Origin: Chloroflexota bacterium
GTDB lineage: Bacteria; Chloroflexota; Dehalococcoidia; DSTF01; RBG-16-68-14
Assembly (NCBI GenBank): GCA_022562155.1
Contig: JADFPV010000003.1
Coordinates: 412 to 64,411, forward strand
Reading direction: 5' to 3'
Length of the DNA: 64,000 nt
The position numbers were made by a program, and so were the translations under genes. The notes under the pieces were generated by a model. It worked only from the letters and a program-made list of their open reading frames with translations, was not told the DNA's origin and did not search any database. Of this stretch, positions 32,126 through 38,977 are shown in pieces. Positions within the stretch are counted from its first letter, which is position 1. Each line of letters starts with the position of its first letter.

Positions 32126-32236
32126 CGAAAACTAGAAGCGACCGTCCCCATTAAAGGACGGTCGCCGATTTCATCTTGAGCGCACACGCGAACGCGAAGC
32201 GTTCGCGAATAGCCTCCCGCCTCCGGCGGGAGGCAC

Positions 32237-32380
32237 TCAGTCCGCGGAAGGCAGGACCTTCGGCTGCATAAGCTGCATCGACACGCCGCAGCACTGCACT
32301 TCGCCGTCGCCCGGCTTGATGCAAAGTACTTCCGACGCGCACGTCTCACACTGAAATCGCTTGCCTAGCTGATTGGCCAT
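32237..32380 (-). CDS. desulforedoxin-like small metal-binding protein (47 aa)
   Basis: Manual translation: MANQLGKRFQCETCASEVLCIKPGDGEVQCCGVSMQLMQPKVLPSAD. CxxC...CC spacing typical of desulforedoxin/Dx-like domains. RBS gagagggg upstream. Below the ORF-track size cutoff. Confidence 0.5.
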   Translation of the reverse strand: MANQLGKRFQCETCASEVLCIKPGDGEVQCCGVSMQLMQPKVLPSAD

Positions 32381-32398
32381 TGAACCTACCCCTCTCAG

Positions 32399-32518
32399 CT
32401 ACTTCTTCTGTTCCATCGGCTGGTCGCAGCACGAGAGGTCGCCGTCGCCACCCTTGGTGACGATCATCTCCGTGTTGCACTTGCTGCACTGGTACCGCTT
32501 GCCTGCTTGGTTCGCCAC
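32399..32518 (-). CDS. desulforedoxin-like small metal-binding protein (39 aa, GTG start), tandem paralog
   Basis: Manual translation: (M)ANQAGKRYQCSKCNTEMIVTKGGDGDLSCCDQPMEQKK. Same CxxC...CC pattern. GGGAG lies 7 nt upstream of the GTG. Confidence 0.5.
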   Translation of the reverse strand: MANQAGKRYQCSKCNTEMIVTKGGDGDLSCCDQPMEQKK

Positions 32519-32629
32519 GATCTCACTCCCTAGCGATTAGAATTCGTATCTACATGCCATAAGGCTGGCAGGTGCTTGAGTCTAGCCAAGAGGATTGCGA
32601 CGGGTCAAGTAGAATCCGTGCCGATGGAC

Positions 32630-34723
32630 CTACGGGCCAGTCACCTCGAAGGCCGTGTACATGCCTAGTCCGTAGTGAGTTGGCACGTTGCAGAACAGCA
32701 CGTACGTACCGGGAGCTAGGTCGGAACTGACAACCCTTTCATCACCGGAGGCCAGTGCGTCCGCAAAGCCGCCGACTTCGTCGAACTGGCTCTCATCAAC
32801 GGTCTGGCCGTCGACTGGGAGCGCATCCGGCGCCAGACCCGTAGCGACGTAGCGGAAGTTGTGGACGGTCGTGCCGTCGTTGTTCACCGTGAAGTCGATC
32901 GGCTCGCCGGTTGCGACAATGGGGTCTGCGATAACTTCGAACTCAACGAGCGACACGCCGACCTGCTCGGCGTCATCCCGCGGCGTGGCAACTGGCCCGT
33001 CAACGGGACCTGACACTAGCGGCGGGTTCTGGCCGCAAGTGGCGCCCGTTACTGTCGGAGCGTTCGGCGGCGCGGGGTGGTCGAGCACGAGCGTGCCGTT
33101 CTCGTGTCCTTCCGGGTCAGTGCCCAAGACGCCTCGTTCCACAATGACGACCTGGCCCAGGAAGAGCTCCGAGTTCTTGGCATGGTCCTCCACCGTCGTG
33201 GCACCTACTTCACGCTCGACTTCGAGGACATCGAAGAAGAGGCTAGTGCCGGTCTCGTGGGAGGCCGCGGACGTTCCCAGTACGCCACGCTCCACCTCGA
33301 GGAGGTTGCCCTCGAAGATCGACACGCGTCGCGAGTGTTCGCCGCGGTCCGTGCCGCCGACGCCGCGCTCGACCCGCAGGACCGCGGGCTGCGTCTCTGT
33401 CACGCGCACCAGCTCGTTCCCTATCTGGTACGTCTGGCCGGCCGAGATGCCGACGATGCCGCTCACGACGATCGTTGTCGCGTTCGCGCTGAGCGCTTCG
33501 ATCAACGTTTGGCCGGTGTCAGGATCTTCAAGCTCGACGCCTTCGTCCAGCTCTTCGTCTGATAGTGGTTCAAGAAGTTCTAGTATCTGAGTGTTGGACG
33601 TGTGCGTGGCCGCCGTGGTGGAACTGCCTTCCAAGTCGGGCGAGCCGCGTTCGATTGTGATCGTAGCGGGCTCCATGCTGAGCACTTCCAGCAGCTCTTC
33701 GCCCATGCGAATCTGCATGCCTACCTCGATGCCCGCGGTGCCCGTTACCGAGATCGTCGTTTGGGCTCGCCCGATCACGATCGCTAGTAATTGGCCGGTC
33801 TTGACGGGGCCAACGATCTCGATCTGTTCGTTGCCGGCGCGGACAACGATGCCAGCGCTGAAGAACGCCGGGTCGTCCAAAGAGATTACGGCAGCGCCCG
33901 ATCCTGTTGAAGCATCCAGTGCGATGTCAAAGTCGCCGTCCTCACGGATGCCGCTCACTTCGAGTAGCTCTGCGCCAAGACGAATGATGTCACCGATCTC
34001 GATGCCGTCGCTGCTGGTGACGAACAGTTCGTCCGGCGTCCGGCCGATTTCTTCGATGAGTCGCTGGCCGGTCGTGGGGATGTCGACGATCCGCATTCGC
34101 TCACCGTCGATGCGGATGAACTGATCGACTGCAAGCGGCGCGGCGTTGCTGACCGTGATGTCTGTCTCAGATGAGCTGAGCGAGCCGCCCGGCATCTGGA
34201 GCGTCGAGTGCTCCGTCGTTTCGGCATCGATCTCGTCAGCGTGATCCTGCGCCTCTTCCCAGAAGCCACCCTCCTGGTACGGATCAGCTCCTAAATCACC
34301 ACCGGTAATCAAGACGGCCAGCTGACGGACCTGTTCTTCGCTAAGCGTGCCGCCGTGAACGCGGCCCCAGGTCGGCATGAACGTGCCGGCTCGGCCACAC
34401 GTGATGACGTTCGTGACCATATTGAACTGTTCATTGAAGGCGGCGACGTTGAACACGCCCTTATCGATACCCTGCAGTTCCGGCCGGTCGAGGACCGGCG
34501 CAGCCGGGAGACGCCCGCCCATAACGCCGCCCTCGCCGCGGTCGCCGTGGCAGAGGCGGCAGTTCAGCGCGAACGTCGTGCCCGCGCGGTAGGCCGACAT
34601 CGCTAGCTGGTCATCTTCCGCCGTGTCCGCGCGGAAGGGATCGAACAGCGCGTAGGCCCCGACCGAGATCACGGTCAAGAGAAGGACGACGACCATGGCG
34701 TTAATTTGCTTGCCGGTGTCCAT
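32630..34723 (-). CDS. membrane-anchored monoheme cytochrome c fused to a C-terminal cupredoxin (type-1 copper) domain, with a long internally repetitive middle region
   Basis: N-terminal TM segment. Single CRLCHG heme-binding motif. C-terminal HNF....FCNVPTHYGLGM His/Cys/His/Met cupredoxin ligand pattern. Degenerate repeats of the type GIE(I/V)G..IR(L/M)G.ELLEV and VERGVLGT..H. Confidence 0.6.
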   Translation of the reverse strand: MDTGKQINAMVVVLLLTVISVGAYALFDPFRADTAEDDQLAMSAYRAGTTFALNCRLCHGDRGEGGVMGGRLPAAPVLDRPELQGIDKGVFNVAAFNEQFNMVTNVITCGRAGTFMPTWGRVHGGTLSEEQVRQLAVLITGGDLGADPYQEGGFWEEAQDHADEIDAETTEHSTLQMPGGSLSSSETDITVSNAAPLAVDQFIRIDGERMRIVDIPTTGQRLIEEIGRTPDELFVTSSDGIEIGDIIRLGAELLEVSGIREDGDFDIALDASTGSGAAVISLDDPAFFSAGIVVRAGNEQIEIVGPVKTGQLLAIVIGRAQTTISVTGTAGIEVGMQIRMGEELLEVLSMEPATITIERGSPDLEGSSTTAATHTSNTQILELLEPLSDEELDEGVELEDPDTGQTLIEALSANATTIVVSGIVGISAGQTYQIGNELVRVTETQPAVLRVERGVGGTDRGEHSRRVSIFEGNLLEVERGVLGTSAASHETGTSLFFDVLEVEREVGATTVEDHAKNSELFLGQVVIVERGVLGTDPEGHENGTLVLDHPAPPNAPTVTGATCGQNPPLVSGPVDGPVATPRDDAEQVGVSLVEFEVIADPIVATGEPIDFTVNNDGTTVHNFRYVATGLAPDALPVDGQTVDESQFDEVGGFADALASGDERVVSSDLAPGTYVLFCNVPTHYGLGMYTAFEVTGP

Positions 34724-34756
34724 CCGTCTCCTTACAGGACTCTCATGCAGCGACGC

Positions 34757-35497
34757 CTAGAGGCGTACTGCTCTATCCGGGTTATCCGGCGCGCCGTCTG
34801 TGGTGCTGCCAGTGTTGACCGAGACGCGGCCGTCGGAGCCGATCGTTAGGTCCATTGTGTCCAATGAACGCGGCGCCGGACCGAAGACGCGGATGCCGGC
34901 GTCGGTATACGTCGAGCCGTGGCAAGGACAGCGGAACCAGCCTTTCTTGTCTGCGCCCGTCGTCGGGTCCGGCCAGATGAAGTTCGGCTTCCAGGGGACG
35001 GTGCAGCCCAGGTGAGGACACTTCCACCAGAGCGCGAGCAGGCCCGGGCCGCCCTGCTCTTCGGTCAAGTTGACGAGCCAGAAGCGGCCTGCGGGAATCT
35101 GCACCTTCTGCCCAGGAGCCGGGACGGCGGCGGCGCCAACGGAGACCGTGCCGCCGAAGCCGGCAACGCCCCGCGGGTAGACAAAGTCGACAAAGCCGGC
35201 GCCCGCAGCGGCAAGTATGGCGCCCATGCCGCTCCAGAAGCCTAGCTGCAGAACGCGCCGCCGCGACACAATAGCCGTGCCCGGCACCCTTTTGGGTTGG
35301 ACGACCGCGGTTGATGGGCCACCAGGCTTGGCAGGTTCCTTCTCTTTCTTGGCTGGCTTTGCGGCCTTGGCTTGAGGAGCGTCGGCAGGGGCGGCGGGTT
35401 GCTCCTTCGCTTCGCCTTCAGGCGCCGCGCCTGTTGCCTCACCGCCTTGCGGCGCCGTCTCCTCAGGAGTTTCTTCGGTCTTTTCTTGTTCCGTCAT
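34757..35497 (-). CDS. Rieske [2Fe-2S] iron-sulfur subunit of a cytochrome bc-type complex (Ala/Pro/Glu-rich N-terminus)
   Basis: CPHLGC ... CPCHGS Rieske boxes. TM anchor. Confidence 0.8.
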   Translation of the reverse strand: MTEQEKTEETPEETAPQGGEATGAAPEGEAKEQPAAPADAPQAKAAKPAKKEKEPAKPGGPSTAVVQPKRVPGTAIVSRRRVLQLGFWSGMGAILAAAGAGFVDFVYPRGVAGFGGTVSVGAAAVPAPGQKVQIPAGRFWLVNLTEEQGGPGLLALWWKCPHLGCTVPWKPNFIWPDPTTGADKKGWFRCPCHGSTYTDAGIRVFGPAPRSLDTMDLTIGSDGRVSVNTGSTTDGAPDNPDRAVRL

Positions 35498-35500
35498 GTC

Positions 35501-36487
35501 TTAGTCGATATGGGGTACGTCCCAGGGCATGACCAAGTCCTGCCCCGCTCCGCGGAACCCCGCTCCGATGATGGTCAGAATGAAGTAGACGGCCATCATC
35601 CCTGTAAAGATACCGATCGATCCGTCGCGCATGGTGTGTATCCACCCCAACTTGCGCATCATCAGGATCATGATCACAGGCAATATCACCATAATGGCGA
35701 CCGGGATGAACAGCTCAACGACAAACGCGGGCGTGTTCATATTCAGGTCATACCAGTACATCGCCTGCATCCAGGCGGGTAAGAAGGTTGGCGGACCCCA
35801 ACGCATCCAGTCCGGCCCGCTGGTGCCGTTGAACGGCATGGGGACATGCGTAAAGTCGTCGGGCCAGTTCAGCTCGCCGTCATGCTCGCCCGGGCCCAAC
35901 TGCGCTGACACAGGCACGGGGATGCTCCATTCCCATCCGGTCTGGATCGAGCGCACGTTCTGGAACGGTGCGAGCTTGCCCGGCCACTGCCAGTCCTTAT
36001 CGCTCCGCTGCACGACGTTCGTGATGACGTTCACGTGGCGGCCCTGGTCGTACAGGATCAAGGCAACCGTGAAGATCGATGCGAACGCCCCGGAGAACAG
36101 AATGATCTTGACAGCGTTCGGCGTGCCGAACCAAGTGCCTTGGCCATCGTTCGACCTATCGATGTACGGGAAGGCTCCGATAATGGCTAGCCCGATGGTT
36201 GGAGCGATGACGCCACCAAGGGCCGGGTGCATGTGGAGCAGCAGCTCCTGAAGCGCCACCAGGTACCAGGCGGCCTTCGACGGGTTTGGCGTGATATCCA
36301 GGTTGGCCTGGTTGAGCAGCGGCGCGTCGAGCATGGTCGAGAGCAGGACGAACATGAACGTGAAGACCATGGCCGCGATGAATTCGACGAAGACGAGGTC
36401 TGGCCAAACGAGTAGCTCTTGCTCTCGCTCACGCCGAGGTCGTGTCGCGGACGCTTCGCTAGATACCGCCTGCGCGTTTACGGCCAT
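35501..36487 (-). CDS. cytochrome bc complex subunit IV-like (cytochrome b C-terminal half homolog) membrane protein
   Basis: Multi-TM protein directly downstream of the b6-like gene. PEWY-region-like segment (WPGKLAPFQNVRS...). Confidence 0.65.
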   Translation of the reverse strand: MAVNAQAVSSEASATRPRREREQELLVWPDLVFVEFIAAMVFTFMFVLLSTMLDAPLLNQANLDITPNPSKAAWYLVALQELLLHMHPALGGVIAPTIGLAIIGAFPYIDRSNDGQGTWFGTPNAVKIILFSGAFASIFTVALILYDQGRHVNVITNVVQRSDKDWQWPGKLAPFQNVRSIQTGWEWSIPVPVSAQLGPGEHDGELNWPDDFTHVPMPFNGTSGPDWMRWGPPTFLPAWMQAMYWYDLNMNTPAFVVELFIPVAIMVILPVIMILMMRKLGWIHTMRDGSIGIFTGMMAVYFILTIIGAGFRGAGQDLVMPWDVPHID

Positions 36488-36490
36488 CGA

Positions 36491-37246
36491 TCACAGAGGC
36501 CGTGCGAGGCCGCCGTCGCGCCTAATGCGCCAGAAGTGGACGGCCATGAAAATGGCTGCAATCAGTGGTAGTCCAATGACGTGAAGCGTGTAGAACCTGA
36601 TCAGCGCAGCGTCGCCTACCTCGAAGCCGCCGAGGAGCAATAACTGCTGCTGCTGGCCCATGACGGGCACGGTGCCGGCCATGTTCATCCCCACGGTGAC
36701 CGCCCAGATAGAGAGCTGATCCCACGGTAACAAATAGCCGGTAAAGCTGAGCGCAAGCGTCAGCGTGAGCAGGATGACGCCTACGAGCCAGTTGAACTCG
36801 CGCGGGGGCTTGTATGAGCCTGTGTAAAAGACGCGCATCATATGCAGGAAGACCGAGATCACCATGCCGTGCGCCATCCAGCGATGGAGGTTCCGCATCA
36901 GCATGCCGAAGCGGATGTTCGTCTCCAGCGCGGCCACGTCCTGAAACGCTCGGTCAGCCGCCGGCACGTAGTAGAACATGAGCATCACGCCCGTGACCGT
37001 CAGGCTTAGGAAGAAGAAGAACGTGATGCCGCCCAGGCAGTACGTGTGTGTGATGCGGACGTGCGTTTTGTGGAGTCGTGTCGGGTGGAGATGGAGAAAG
37101 ACGTTCGTCGCGACGACAAGCATCTGGTTGCGCGGCGTGCTCGGGTAGCCCGAACGGAAGATTGAACGCCAGATGTAGTTATGAAATAGTTTTTCGGACA
37201 GCCAGTTCGTTAGTCCTGGGCCAGGTGGTTGTTCAGAGACTGCCAT
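36491..37246 (-). CDS. cytochrome b6-like (split N-terminal cytochrome b) subunit
   Basis: YCLGGITFFFFLSLTVTGVMLMFYY matches the b6 heme-ligand helix region. His ligands in helices B and D. Confidence 0.8.
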   Translation of the reverse strand: MAVSEQPPGPGLTNWLSEKLFHNYIWRSIFRSGYPSTPRNQMLVVATNVFLHLHPTRLHKTHVRITHTYCLGGITFFFFLSLTVTGVMLMFYYVPAADRAFQDVAALETNIRFGMLMRNLHRWMAHGMVISVFLHMMRVFYTGSYKPPREFNWLVGVILLTLTLALSFTGYLLPWDQLSIWAVTVGMNMAGTVPVMGQQQQLLLLGGFEVGDAALIRFYTLHVIGLPLIAAIFMAVHFWRIRRDGGLARPL

Positions 37247-37267
37247 GGCTACCCCTGTGGATACGGG

Positions 37268-37393
37268 CTAGCGAGCCCACCACTGTCCCAGTACAAGCAG
37301 GATGGCGAACGCGATCATCATCGTTATGAACGCCCCCAGGAACTCGACGAAGTCAGGAGCCAGGAAGCCAACATCCCCAACGTCCCAGGGCAT
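37268..37393 (-). CDS. 41-aa single-TM protein at the head of the bc operon (manual)
   Basis: MPWDVGDVGFLAPDFVEFLGAFITMMIAFAILLVLGQWWAR. Position analogous to small PetG/PetN-like subunits. Not in the ORF track. Confidence 0.3.
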   Translation of the reverse strand: MPWDVGDVGFLAPDFVEFLGAFITMMIAFAILLVLGQWWAR

Positions 37394-37527
37394 ACAGTCA
37401 CCTCGCTACGCTACTGCTACTCAGATTCGAGCAGAACTCGCGTCACATCGGATTGTGAAGCTATTTACAAGCGTTAGCCTAGCATCGAGTTCGCCTATTG
37501 TCAAGAATATTTAGATAGGGATCAGAC

Positions 37528-38931
37528 GTGGTGGTGTGCTACGCTACGCACACTATGGCGGCCCAACGTGACTCCGATGGCAGACGGTTAGCAGGGCCGC
37601 GAAACGAGTGGGCGTCAGGCTGGAAAAATCCACGGATGATGAGGTGTTCAACACGCGGCCTGCTCGTTCTTCTCGCGTTGCTGGTTACGGCTACGGCGTG
37701 TGCTGGCAGTCGTGGGGATGATGGCGATGGCAGCTCGATGCTCTCAGGGGCCGTGTATATAGATACGTCTGGGAGCCTAGTCCGGGTTGACCTTGCCCGG
37801 CAGACGGCCTCCGAGGTCTACCGCTTCGAAGCGAGGCTCCTTCGCCAGAATGTTGTTTCCATTGAAGATCGCCTGATCTATGTGGACGTCGTTTCCTCTG
37901 GTGACGTGTTGGTACCCGTACTGCACGTCCTTGAGCGTGACACCGGTATCGAGCAGGCTCCCATTACGCTCGACCCGGTGCAAGGCGTATCTACGACAGG
38001 TAGCGCTGGCGAACTTCTGTTTCTCTCGCCCGGTAACCGCATCCACGTCTGGCACCTGCCACAACCCGGGTTGGTTGCAGTGGGCATCGCCGTGACGCAC
38101 GATGGATCGACATCATACAGGCTGGATCTCATCGACGCGCGGGACCTCTCAATCATCCGGTCGGTTGACCTGGGTGAGATGCCAGAGCGGCTAGGCGACA
38201 TCAGCATGGCGATCGATTCGAGCGGCAACGCGGCGGTTCTCCTCGGCACTAGCCGAATGAACAAGATGCTCGTCAGTTCTGGTAGCCTGTCGGAATTTCT
38301 ACCGGGCGGCGATCTAGCCGGCTGCGTGCGCGGTGCGTCCAGCACACCCAAGGCTCTACGGCGTTATTTTCTGTGTCGAAAGTCAGAGCCTGTCCTGAGC
38401 ACATCGATCGTAGTCGTCACCGCCGAGAATGAAGCAGAGTGGCGTCAGCTGCCTGGGGAGTTCGAGGACCCTTTATTCGGCGTCGTGGATGCCGGCAGCT
38501 CGGTGTTCGTTGGAAACGTGTTGAAAGCGACCGTTGTCGAATTTGATCTGGTCTCTCAACAGGTTGTGGCTGAACGGCAAGTATCTCGAAAGGGAGGCCC
38601 GCCGTTGCTGGGGCATCTGAGGGACATCTTTCTGGGGGGCAAGGCCGTGGCGCTCGGGGTGGTACGGCGGCCTATTGCCGTTTCCCCGGACGGAGAGCGC
38701 GTCTACTTCACAGACGCCACAAGAGTGTACTGTCTCCAGGCCCAGAACCTGGAAACTATCGGCGATGCGGAGTTCGAGTCCGTACGTTCGCTCGCGAGCT
38801 GGAACGATGATAAGTTCTTAGCTGCTGGCGAAACAACGCTCCACGTGCTGGACGCAACATGCAAGCTTGAAGCTTCGATCGAAATTCCCTTCGATACCCG
38901 TGGACCACCTCAGGAGGTGTTCGCTCCGTGA
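37528..38931 (+). CDS. hypothetical secreted lipoprotein (probable start at 37636)
   Basis: MMRCSTRGLLVLLALLVTATACAG signal peptide with lipobox Cys. Beta-rich repetitive body. Confidence 0.5.
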   Translation: MVVCYATHTMAAQRDSDGRRLAGPRNEWASGWKNPRMMRCSTRGLLVLLALLVTATACAGSRGDDGDGSSMLSGAVYIDTSGSLVRVDLARQTASEVYRFEARLLRQNVVSIEDRLIYVDVVSSGDVLVPVLHVLERDTGIEQAPITLDPVQGVSTTGSAGELLFLSPGNRIHVWHLPQPGLVAVGIAVTHDGSTSYRLDLIDARDLSIIRSVDLGEMPERLGDISMAIDSSGNAAVLLGTSRMNKMLVSSGSLSEFLPGGDLAGCVRGASSTPKALRRYFLCRKSEPVLSTSIVVVTAENEAEWRQLPGEFEDPLFGVVDAGSSVFVGNVLKATVVEFDLVSQQVVAERQVSRKGGPPLLGHLRDIFLGGKAVALGVVRRPIAVSPDGERVYFTDATRVYCLQAQNLETIGDAEFESVRSLASWNDDKFLAAGETTLHVLDATCKLEASIEIPFDTRGPPQEVFAP

Positions 38932-38977
38932 CGGCCGGAACGCCGAACCTTGGCAGAGTAGGGACGGCTGCCGGAGG

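Follow-up and report, generated by a model that had tools for sequence, protein, structure and literature searches.

Desulforedoxin is a textbook model of bioinorganic chemistry, known essentially from one sulfate reducer and from a domain of superoxide reductases. Desulforedoxin proper carries one high-spin iron per chain in a distorted tetrahedral site of four cysteines and is redox active. The protein of Desulfovibrio gigas (1DXG) is a homodimer of identical 36-amino-acid (aa) chains, encoded by a single gene. Small four-cysteine folds of another kind, the zinc ribbons of LysW, of DUF35/ChsH2 (scaffolds of thiolase-like enzymes) and of the C+/C− forms of the ribosomal proteins L31, L36 and S14, dock onto enzymes and hold a structural metal that can be lost; in the amino-group carrier LysW, function depends on a conserved acidic tail at the C-terminus, which ends in Glu. 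Here we describe a pair of very small genes, dxA and dxB, in a stretch of 64,000 nucleotides (nt), referred to below as the window, from a Chloroflexota bacterium of the class Dehalococcoidia (assembly GCA_022562155.1, contig JADFPV010000003.1, positions 412 to 64,411). Their products appear to be two diverged paralogues of the desulforedoxin fold, and we propose that they act together as a paired adaptor protein.

The closest known entity is D. gigas desulforedoxin (1DXG/1CFW; PF06397). It is likewise one small domain (36–47 aa across these proteins), its C-x2-C-x15-CC ligands align residue for residue with those of DxA and DxB, and it is the best structural match of the models of both. In contrast to the single gene for a homodimer in D. 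gigas, two diverged genes stand here in a fixed bicistron. The N-terminal motif A-N-Q-x-G-K-R-Y/F is specific to the dxA/dxB family, and DxB adds a fifth invariant cysteine and an invariant Asp-ending tail of 9–12 residues. The hosts are Chloroflexota with a Rieske/cytochrome b complex, not sulfate reducers, and dxAB has close orthologues that lack the cysteine ligands. Next closest is centre I of desulfoferrodoxin/2Fe-superoxide reductase (1DFX, 1VZG, 2JI1; TIGR00320), which supplies the best PDB sequence matches. The DxB segment past the CC pair (M-x-L-M-Q) aligns with the start of the desulfoferrodoxin interdomain linker (the match extends to profile position 40 in one comparison and to query position 39 in another), but DxA and DxB end at 39 and 47 residues, without the C-terminal catalytic neelaredoxin (superoxide reductase, SOR) domain and its His4Cys iron site.

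Tandem-desulforedoxin fusions, recorded as hypothetical proteins (OGA02305.1 of Betaproteobacteria, MBE3555840.1 of Bacillota, HQW51469.1 of Tepidiformaceae), are built of the same two domain types, likewise with A before B, and share the G-K-R-Y motif and the ...PKxLPS[AS]D end with dxAB; a Tepidiformaceae-like fusion also has the same genomic slot and promoter type. They differ in being one polypeptide, in which CC is in many cases changed to CH or the ligands are absent, and most of them adjoin genes for enoyl-CoA hydratase (ECH) and family III CoA-transferase, not a cytochrome bc (bc) operon. The likeness of dxAB to the zinc-ribbon accessory proteins (LysW, DUF35/ChsH2, L31/L36/S14) is one of analogy only, and the adjacent CC pair of DxA and DxB is a desulforedoxin signature, unlike the CxxC of the ribbons. 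In the literature, we found no account of desulforedoxin from Chloroflexi, of tandem or hetero-paired desulforedoxin domains, or of derivatives without the cysteines. What is known already is the family names of individual proteins; neither the conserved tail nor the architecture, in its paired, fused and ligand-free forms, seems to have been described.

Results

dxA and dxB are real genes. A first-pass annotation of the window had proposed two minus-strand open reading frames (ORFs) of 47 and 39 aa, and both are found where it placed them (Table 1); no other such pair occurs in the window. The two products (DxA, MANQAGKRYQCSKCNTEMIVTKGGDGDLSCCDQPMEQKK; DxB, MANQLGKRFQCETCASEVLCIKPGDGEVQCCGVSMQLMQPKVLPSAD) are ~51% identical and share both the N-terminus MANQxGKR(Y/F)QCxxC and the cysteine pattern C-x2-C-x15-CC. 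The spacing had initially been given as CxxC-(14-15)-CC; the CxxC and CC elements are present, but the spacing is 15 in both proteins. Each gene has its own ribosome-binding site (RBS), as had been suggested: AGGGAG (32531..32526) lies 7 nt ahead of the GTG of dxA, and GAGGGG (32394..32389) lies 8 nt ahead of the ATG of dxB. The description of the pair as unannotated holds for dxA, the exact product of which has no public record as a called gene, but not for dxB, the exact product of which is called on 16 public contigs. Homologues of both types in metagenome-assembled genomes (MAGs) of Dehalococcoidia/Chloroflexota are named 'desulfoferrodoxin' or 'desulfoferrodoxin-like iron-binding protein' by NCBI/JGI. 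No A gene is called in the public records of several loci that we inspected; among the public calls inspected, the A gene is uncalled at some loci and apparently over-extended upstream at others, probably because of its GTG or TTG start.

Both proteins exceed the gathering cut-off (23 bits) of PF06397, the desulfoferrodoxin N-terminal domain, DxA with 32.5 bits (E = 6.5e-8) and DxB, barely, with 23.6 bits (E = 4.1e-5), which bears out the hidden Markov model (HMM) check proposed at first pass. The score against TIGR00320 (desulfoferrodoxin/2Fe-superoxide reductase) is 25 bits, below the cut-off of 146.9. When the family profile was compared with the PDB, only desulfoferrodoxins and D. gigas desulforedoxin were significant (E 2e-6 to 3e-4), and its four cysteines aligned with the ligand cysteines of 1CFW, 1DFX and 2JI2. 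AlphaFold (AF2) models built from homologue alignments had predicted local distance difference test (pLDDT) values of 78 (A) and 83 (B). The top Foldseek match of both models in the PDB was 1DXG_A, with template modelling (TM) scores of 0.81 and 0.87 (target-normalised), root-mean-square deviations of 1.2 and 1.6 Å, a probability of 1.00 and 33–35% identity; the E-values were only 0.02–0.05 because the domain is so small. The next matches were the N-terminal domains of 2Fe-superoxide reductases. The profile score, the ligand pattern and the predicted fold, a short beta-hairpin knuckle domain, together support the assignment of both proteins to the desulforedoxin/desulfoferrodoxin-N fold family. 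The desulforedoxin-type centre suggested by the first-pass annotation agrees with these matches and with the CC pair, which is invariant in the clade.

Two other assignments were considered and rejected. A ribosomal-protein-like zinc ribbon, prompted by the nearby tuf-secE-nusG-rplK-rplA genes, is contradicted by the Pfam match, which is to desulforedoxin, with S27e/L37ae-type matches far below threshold. For precursors of ribosomally synthesized and post-translationally modified peptides, no modification enzymes were found in any neighbourhood, and the folded-domain match accounts for the cysteine pattern.

To follow dxA beyond the window, a profile from a three-sequence alignment was run against 5.8 billion proteins and returned 150 proteins, all below the E-value cut-off. 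The homologues inspected split into two sharply distinct types: A, of 38–39 aa (ANQ[VA]GKRYQCxKCxTEMIVTKGGxGxLxCCGQPMxQK), and B, of 47 aa (ANQLGKRFQCExCxxEVLCIKPGDGxVxCCGxxMxLxQPKVLPSAD), with a mean column identity of 85–86% within each type taken separately. The first-pass annotation had overlooked that A and B represent distinct types of paralogue that co-evolve. When one genome per GTDB species was scanned, 453 coding stretches were detected, and the best 80 loci all come from Chloroflexota/Dehalococcoidia MAGs, bar two bins with other labels. In 72 of the species representatives, and also in metagenome contigs, the A gene lies directly upstream of B on the same strand. Loci reached via A-type proteins always have B behind A, and a divergent low-GC relative has the same pair, in which B is uncalled. 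No locus with room on both sides has one type alone, except four without a pattern-detected A. Median ratios of nonsynonymous to synonymous substitutions (dN/dS; pairwise Nei–Gojobori, ~2200 pairs for each gene) are 0.14 for A and 0.13 for B. Where a lack of conservation or a dN/dS near 1 had been named as grounds for doubting the genes, we thus find 72 species and ratios of this size.

One MAG (CAWIGJ01) has two dxAB pairs (L064 and L075). One is in a slot between GT2 and amidohydrolase genes, and the second, more divergent pair is behind CoA-transferase, ECH, DUF35 and thiolase genes and adjoins an integrase.

Individual columns, start codons and spacers were counted at 76 loci, found with a search pattern that demanded G-K-R and the two N-terminal cysteines (CxxC). 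Cys30 and Cys31 of both proteins and Cys20 of DxB are invariant (76/76), as is G-K-R, itself part of the pattern. In the DxB tail, QPKVLPSAD, residues P40, L43, P44 and S45 are invariant and D47 is present at 75/76 loci. The dxA start is GTG or TTG at 65/76 loci and ATG, at the same codon, at the remaining 11, and dxB starts with ATG at 75/76. This asymmetry between the A and B start codons is conserved; it might set stoichiometry or regulate expression. The A–B spacer has a median of 13 nt (range 2 to 152 nt), and the dxB RBS is in most cases directly adjacent to the stop codon of A, an arrangement typical of translational coupling, so that dxA and dxB are probably coupled. In the window, the genes are in one frame, with TAG and 18 nt between them. 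We rejected programmed read-through or a natural fusion in the window: the genes are in frame at 22/76 loci, about the 1/3 expected by chance, so that there is no conserved read-through, and the spacer varies over the range given above.

When 1.84 billion cluster representatives were searched exhaustively with an HMM, there were 1270 matches at E ≤0.001. Many of these are 81–142 aa long with two matched stretches each, and dozens are natural single-chain fusions, each with two PF06397 stretches, in which a variable linker joins an A-like domain to a B-like domain that follows it and ends in ...PKxLPS[AS]D. Their hosts are Betaproteobacteria, Bacillota, Tepidiformaceae/Dehalococcoidia and marine metagenome lineages. 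Among 44 fusions, the N-terminal domain was closer to the A profile in 40 and the C-terminal domain closer to the B profile in 36. Because the fusions are in A-to-B order (the Rosetta-stone argument) and desulforedoxin is a homodimer, an A–B heterodimer is the simplest reading, and from this genomic evidence, with the described homodimeric state of desulforedoxin, we consider it probable that DxA and DxB form one. In a set of 31 diverse fusions, complete invariance is limited to the C-terminal Asp and, within the G-K-R of the second domain, to G and R; the K is present in at least 90%.

Two of the matches are of other kinds. P0124 (122 aa) has the domains in reversed order, B-like then A-like, after an N-terminal hydrophobic signal or transmembrane (TM) segment, and may be an exported or membrane-anchored version. 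P0123 (1353 aa) is a large repeat protein with 12 weak profile matches (repeats ...QYVNHVTNQEFVFT...CC...); it is probably unrelated and was caught via its CC and beta-strand pattern.

Many fusions have degenerate metal sites, in which the CC of the B domain has become CH or all ligands have been lost. The change to CH was seen in the B domains of P0125, P0129, P0160, P0162, P0163, P0169, P0177, P0185, P0194 and P0239, where a Cys3His site is possible. The Tepidiformaceae-like fusion lacks both CxxC and CC and occupies the exact dxAB slot behind the bc operon. The order at that locus is GT2, small TM ORF, cytochrome b, subunit IV, Rieske, cytochrome c and the fusion, and the downstream genes match an unfused, cysteine-complete locus. 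It retains the promoter TTGACC-17-TA(G/C)(C/G)AT and has a dN/dS of 0.10. An evolutionary intermediate is found at L129 (6995..7279; also L130/L131), where an unfused A with three cysteines (CC changed to CG) is followed, in frame, by a cysteine-less 47-aa B, again behind the bc operon. Since cysteine-less orthologues in the same slot are under purifying selection, the metal site appears to be dispensable in the wider family. In the lineage of the window, where each subunit would bind one metal ion through C-x2-C-x15-CC, the ligand pattern makes metal binding very probable; the ion would be Fe or Zn, between which a sequence does not discriminate.

The fusions outside the Tepidiformaceae-like group lie in gene clusters that encode enoyl-CoA hydratases and family III CoA-transferases; 41/49 of them have an ECH gene within 1 kb, usually 17–44 nt downstream. 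Amidohydro_3 genes recur near homologues in three lineages, and the betaproteobacterial one is 40% identical to the window enzyme. On marine contigs (L133–L163, L189), one conserved cluster reads MFS, ECH, CMD, double CoA-transferase III, epimerase-like (minus strand), the tandem-desulforedoxin fusion, ECH, CoA-transferase, ECH and CoA-transferase (minus strand), with the fusion 17–44 nt upstream of the hydratase gene.

We next consider the transcription signals of the pair in the window (Table 1). A sigma-70-like promoter is predicted ahead of dxA, and the corresponding pattern, TTGAC[GTC]-N17/18-TA..[AC]T, occurs upstream of dxA at 71/75 loci compared with 2% of 3000 random control windows of 180 nt taken from these loci. 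Across loci, a median of 55 nt separates the end of the −10 element from the start codon; in the close relative L001, the promoter hexamers are unchanged and the spacer differs. Directly after the dxB stop, the 60 nt that contain two hairpins (GCCTCCCGCC-GGA-GGCGGGAGGC at 32234..32212 and CGCGAACGC-TTC-GCGTTCGCG at 32207..32187) have a folding free energy of −38.9 kcal/mol (z −5.2). Most relatives also have a G+C-rich hairpin after dxB, often with a T-rich tail (median z −1.84, 33/74 below −2). At L104, a terminator ends the bc operon and the dxAB promoter comes after it; in the window, there is no stop to read-through from the bc operon into dxAB. With promoter and terminator signals of its own, dxAB is predicted to be an autonomous promoter-to-terminator bicistron of ~0.45 kb and not the tail of the bc operon.

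The predicted leader is not significantly more stable than its shuffles overall (median z −0.6), and an Rfam scan of the leader and the intergenic hairpins gave no match above noise. A riboswitch or known RNA in the leader was rejected on these grounds, and the structures were taken as ordinary 5′ hairpins. Many species (among them those of loci L035, L042, L043, L048 and L088) have a strong hairpin near the leader start, with differing sequences (e.g. GCAGGACGCG...CGCGTCCTGC). In some clades, the leader hairpins could serve as 5′ stem-loops that stabilise the mRNA or as operator palindromes.

Table 1. Coordinates of the dxAB unit and of its neighbours in the window.
Feature	Position	Strand	Description
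dxA	32399..32518	−	39 aa, GTG start, Cys11/14/30/31; predicted A-type desulforedoxin-fold protein
dxB	32237..32380	−	47 aa, ATG start, Cys11/14/30/31 and Cys20; predicted B-type desulforedoxin-fold protein
dxA–dxB spacer	32381..32398	−	18 nt, holds the dxB RBS
Predicted sigma-70-like promoter	32579..32608	−	−35 TTGACC (32608..32603), 18-nt spacer, −10 TAGACT (32584..32579)
Predicted 5′ leader	32519..32572	−	~54 nt; transcription start inferred from sequence
Two G+C-rich hairpins	32187..32234	−	Directly 3′ of the dxB stop; from sequence and folding
Intrinsic-terminator-like hairpin	32127..32166	−	13-bp stem, then TTCTAGTTTTC; just ahead of the amidohydrolase start
b6-type Rieske/cytochrome b operon	32630..37393	−	Upstream of dxAB
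Single-TM ORF, 41 aa	37268..37393	−	MPWDVGDVGFLAPDFVEFLGAFITMMIAFAILLVLGQWWAR; 21 nt upstream of cytochrome b
Cytochrome b, 251 aa	36491..37246	−	Short four-helix type, YCLGG motif near the N-terminus
Subunit-IV-like protein, 328 aa	35501..36487	−	bc operon
Rieske	34757..35497	−	bc operon
Cytochrome c/cupredoxin fusion, 697 aa	32630..34723	−	Last bc operon gene before dxAB
Amidohydro_3 metal-dependent hydrolase, 508 aa	30599..32125	−	PF07969, 278 bits; downstream of dxAB

As described at first pass, dxA follows the cytochrome c/cupredoxin gene in the same direction, at a distance of 111 nt; dxB ends 111 nt upstream of the Amidohydro_3 gene. Conservation of the pair next to bc-complex genes was found in part: cytochrome b and Rieske genes are upstream on the same strand in 30 of the 51 species for which 4.5 kb or more of upstream sequence is available, but the other 21 have no bc operon upstream of dxAB. 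The bc-operon arrangement is the same at loci found via A-type proteins. An Amidohydro_3 orthologue is downstream within 1 kb in 24/72 species and within 3 kb in 30/72 (with more queries); by a stricter count, its start is within 1 kb downstream in 22/63 species. Among 46 species with both flanks, six have both neighbours, 21 the bc operon only, nine the amidohydrolase only and ten neither; loci with neither have unrelated housekeeping or catabolic neighbours. The bc–dxAB or dxAB–amidohydrolase linkage is kept while the outer flanks vary. No gene for a reductase, SOR, rubrerythrin or flavodiiron protein was found in the neighbourhoods examined.

The complex encoded upstream looks b6c-like, with a separate 328-aa subunit-IV-like protein. 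The cysteine of the YCLGG motif of its cytochrome b is presumably equivalent to the one that covalently binds the cytoplasm-facing heme cn in b6-type cytochromes. The 41-aa TM ORF, which is identical in L001 and has a related 39-aa ORF ending in GQWWQR in the same place in L103 and L106, is probably an unannotated small subunit of the Rieske/cytochrome b complex. The 697-aa protein has a TM helix at its N-terminus and a type-1 copper motif (FCNVPTHYGLGM) at its C-terminus, as well as the heme c motif CRLCH; its long middle region looks, by eye, variable and repeat-like, and orthologues range from about 400 to 770 aa. Between the bc operon and the GT2 gene, the window has ~1.45 kb of DNA (37394..38977) that is extra relative to L001, with a 467-aa ORF on the opposite strand (37528..38931, plus strand) with a signal- or lipobox-like N-terminus (LLVTATACAG), for which we found no Pfam match.

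Discussion

The above results can be brought together in the following proposal, to which, as a whole, we would assign a probability of about 0.5. dxA and dxB would be co-transcribed, and their products, diverged paralogues of the desulforedoxin fold, would act jointly as a pseudo-symmetric heterodimer, a counterpart, made from two genes, of the D. gigas homodimer. The conserved job of this heterodimer would be protein–protein docking, as a small soluble accessory or adaptor subunit in which the metal is mainly structural, and the docking parts would be the basic N-terminal G-K-R-Y/F motif and the DxB tail. The case for an adaptor comes from the cysteine-less relatives, which keep the gene, its position, the promoter, the G-K-R-Y/F motif and the tail ...PKVLPSAD; on such sequence grounds, we put at even odds that a non-redox docking or adaptor role, with the scaffold, the GKR(Y/F) motif and the C-terminal arm of DxB, has been preserved family-wide. 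Should the metal be iron, single-electron transfer near 0 mV might be an added property. In the genome of the window, the likeliest partners would be the b6-type Rieske/cytochrome b complex, on its cytoplasmic side, and the Amidohydro_3 hydrolase. The first is a tentative candidate and the second a slightly more doubtful one, and a partner other than these two comes nearer to, but still falls short of, an even bet.

Several points weigh against this proposal. No partner gene is common to all contexts, and since the loci all belong to one bacterial class, the adjacency to the bc operon and the amidohydrolase could be inherited synteny. Every cysteine ligand seen is kept in the window clade, so that a functional redox centre fits equally well. 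The invariance of Cys11 and Cys14 is not independent evidence, because CxxC was required by the search pattern. Both proteins miss the cut-off (36.05 bits) of NCBIfam TIGR00319, the desulfoferrodoxin FeS4 iron-binding domain, with 25.0 bits for A and 15.7 for B, and so by the sequence criterion of NCBI they are divergent members. Finally, CoA-transferase paralogue families are reported to be expanded in SAR202 genomes (PMC5395668), and because of this expansion, some of the adjacency of the fusions to CoA-transferase genes in marine lineages may be coincidental.

The strongest alternative is that DxA and DxB are iron desulforedoxins that serve as cytoplasmic single-electron carriers, either for the b6-type complex (e.g. 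for its n-side heme cn) or for oxygen-detoxifying enzymes. We consider it unlikely, yet a serious rival, because the ligands are strictly conserved in the window clade: the fold and the C-x2-C-x15-CC motif are those of desulforedoxin, the CC ligands are invariant at 76 loci, 30/51 species have the bc operon upstream, and the window cytochrome b has the YCLGG motif with its presumed link to heme cn. The potentials of desulforedoxin-like centres, about 0 to +240 mV (PMC7482061), would suit such a carrier. However, orthologues without cysteines occur in the same post-bc slot, with the same promoter and under purifying selection; the pair has its own promoter and terminator; the bc operon is absent upstream in 21/51 species; the neighbours examined include no gene for a reductase, SOR, rubrerythrin or flavodiiron protein; and the fused relatives are in hydratase/CoA-transferase clusters with no obvious need for an electron carrier. 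The same observations bear on the suggestion of the first-pass annotation, made from gene position, that the pair serve the bc complex as redox partners or metallochaperones. We regard the reading as a redox partner of that complex as weakly supported. A subunit of the bc complex would fit with genes that are adjacent and co-directional in 30/51 species and in the cysteine-less fused lineage, yet 71/75 loci have a separate promoter.

Another possibility concerns the tail, which in DxB is flexible and ends in Asp. It might be a tether or a substrate arm, in the manner of LysW, or its C-terminus might be processed by the Amidohydro_3 enzyme. The terminal Asp is invariant in the 31 diverse fusions and ends 75/76 B proteins, in which P40, L43, P44 and S45 are also invariant; Amidohydro_3 recurs beside the family in Chloroflexota, on a betaproteobacterial contig and in marine lineages; and acyl-activating enzymes (CoA-transferases, AMP-binding) are present in several clusters. 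Against this, a ligase, ATP-grasp or other, is not consistently present, and no ATP-grasp gene of the LysX/ArgX type was found in the neighbourhoods scanned. LysW models matched the fused homologues far below threshold, with 13–16 bits against cut-offs of 27–75 (E about 0.01–0.08) and no significant stretch. Terminator-like hairpins lie between dxB and the amidohydrolase gene in the window, and 48/72 pairs have no amidohydrolase within 1 kb. In our analysis, a carrier or substrate role of the tail is improbable.

About as improbable, in our view, are two independent homodimers, A2 and B2, that serve different partners and are adjacent only through tandem duplication. Canonical desulforedoxin is a homodimer, and A and B, only ~51% identical to each other, are each separately conserved at 85–86% mean column identity. 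Fusion of A to B, however, arose repeatedly in several phyla, no roomy locus has one type alone, bar the four without a pattern-detected A, and the tight spacer looks coupled. Weakest is the view that the two are chance ORFs and no genes at all: they are shorter than the usual ORF-length thresholds, and the exact dxA product is unrecorded as a called gene, but their retention in at least 72 species as an A–B pair with dN/dS of ~0.13, which refutes it, together with scores above the Pfam cut-off and conserved RBS, promoter and terminator, reduces its probability almost to nil.

A bolder version of the paired-adaptor proposal, which we regard as speculative in all its parts taken jointly, is that the desulforedoxin fold was recruited as a class of two-part A/B carrier or adaptor mini-proteins, with the basic G-K-R-Y/F motif and an invariant C-terminal arm that ends in Asp as the functional elements and an optional metal. 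The arm would dock into partner enzymes, or would be processed or loaded by them, and candidate partners would be Amidohydro_3, enzymes of the crotonase fold and of CoA-transferase family III and, in Dehalococcoidia, the b6-type complex at its cytoplasmic face.

For gene annotation, the lesson is that A genes of 38–39 codons with a GTG or TTG start were left uncalled or were over-extended in the public calls examined. For the family, the results point to a large uncharacterised branch of desulforedoxin, which exists as a hetero-pair in Chloroflexota with a Rieske/cytochrome b complex, as tandem fusions elsewhere, and as cysteine-free derivatives under selection. These three forms make up a natural experiment on whether selection preserves the Fe(Cys)4 site or the scaffold. 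They also provide a pointer to a small accessory protein that may be linked to a respiratory complex of the b6 type as well as to pathways of hydrolases and CoA esters.

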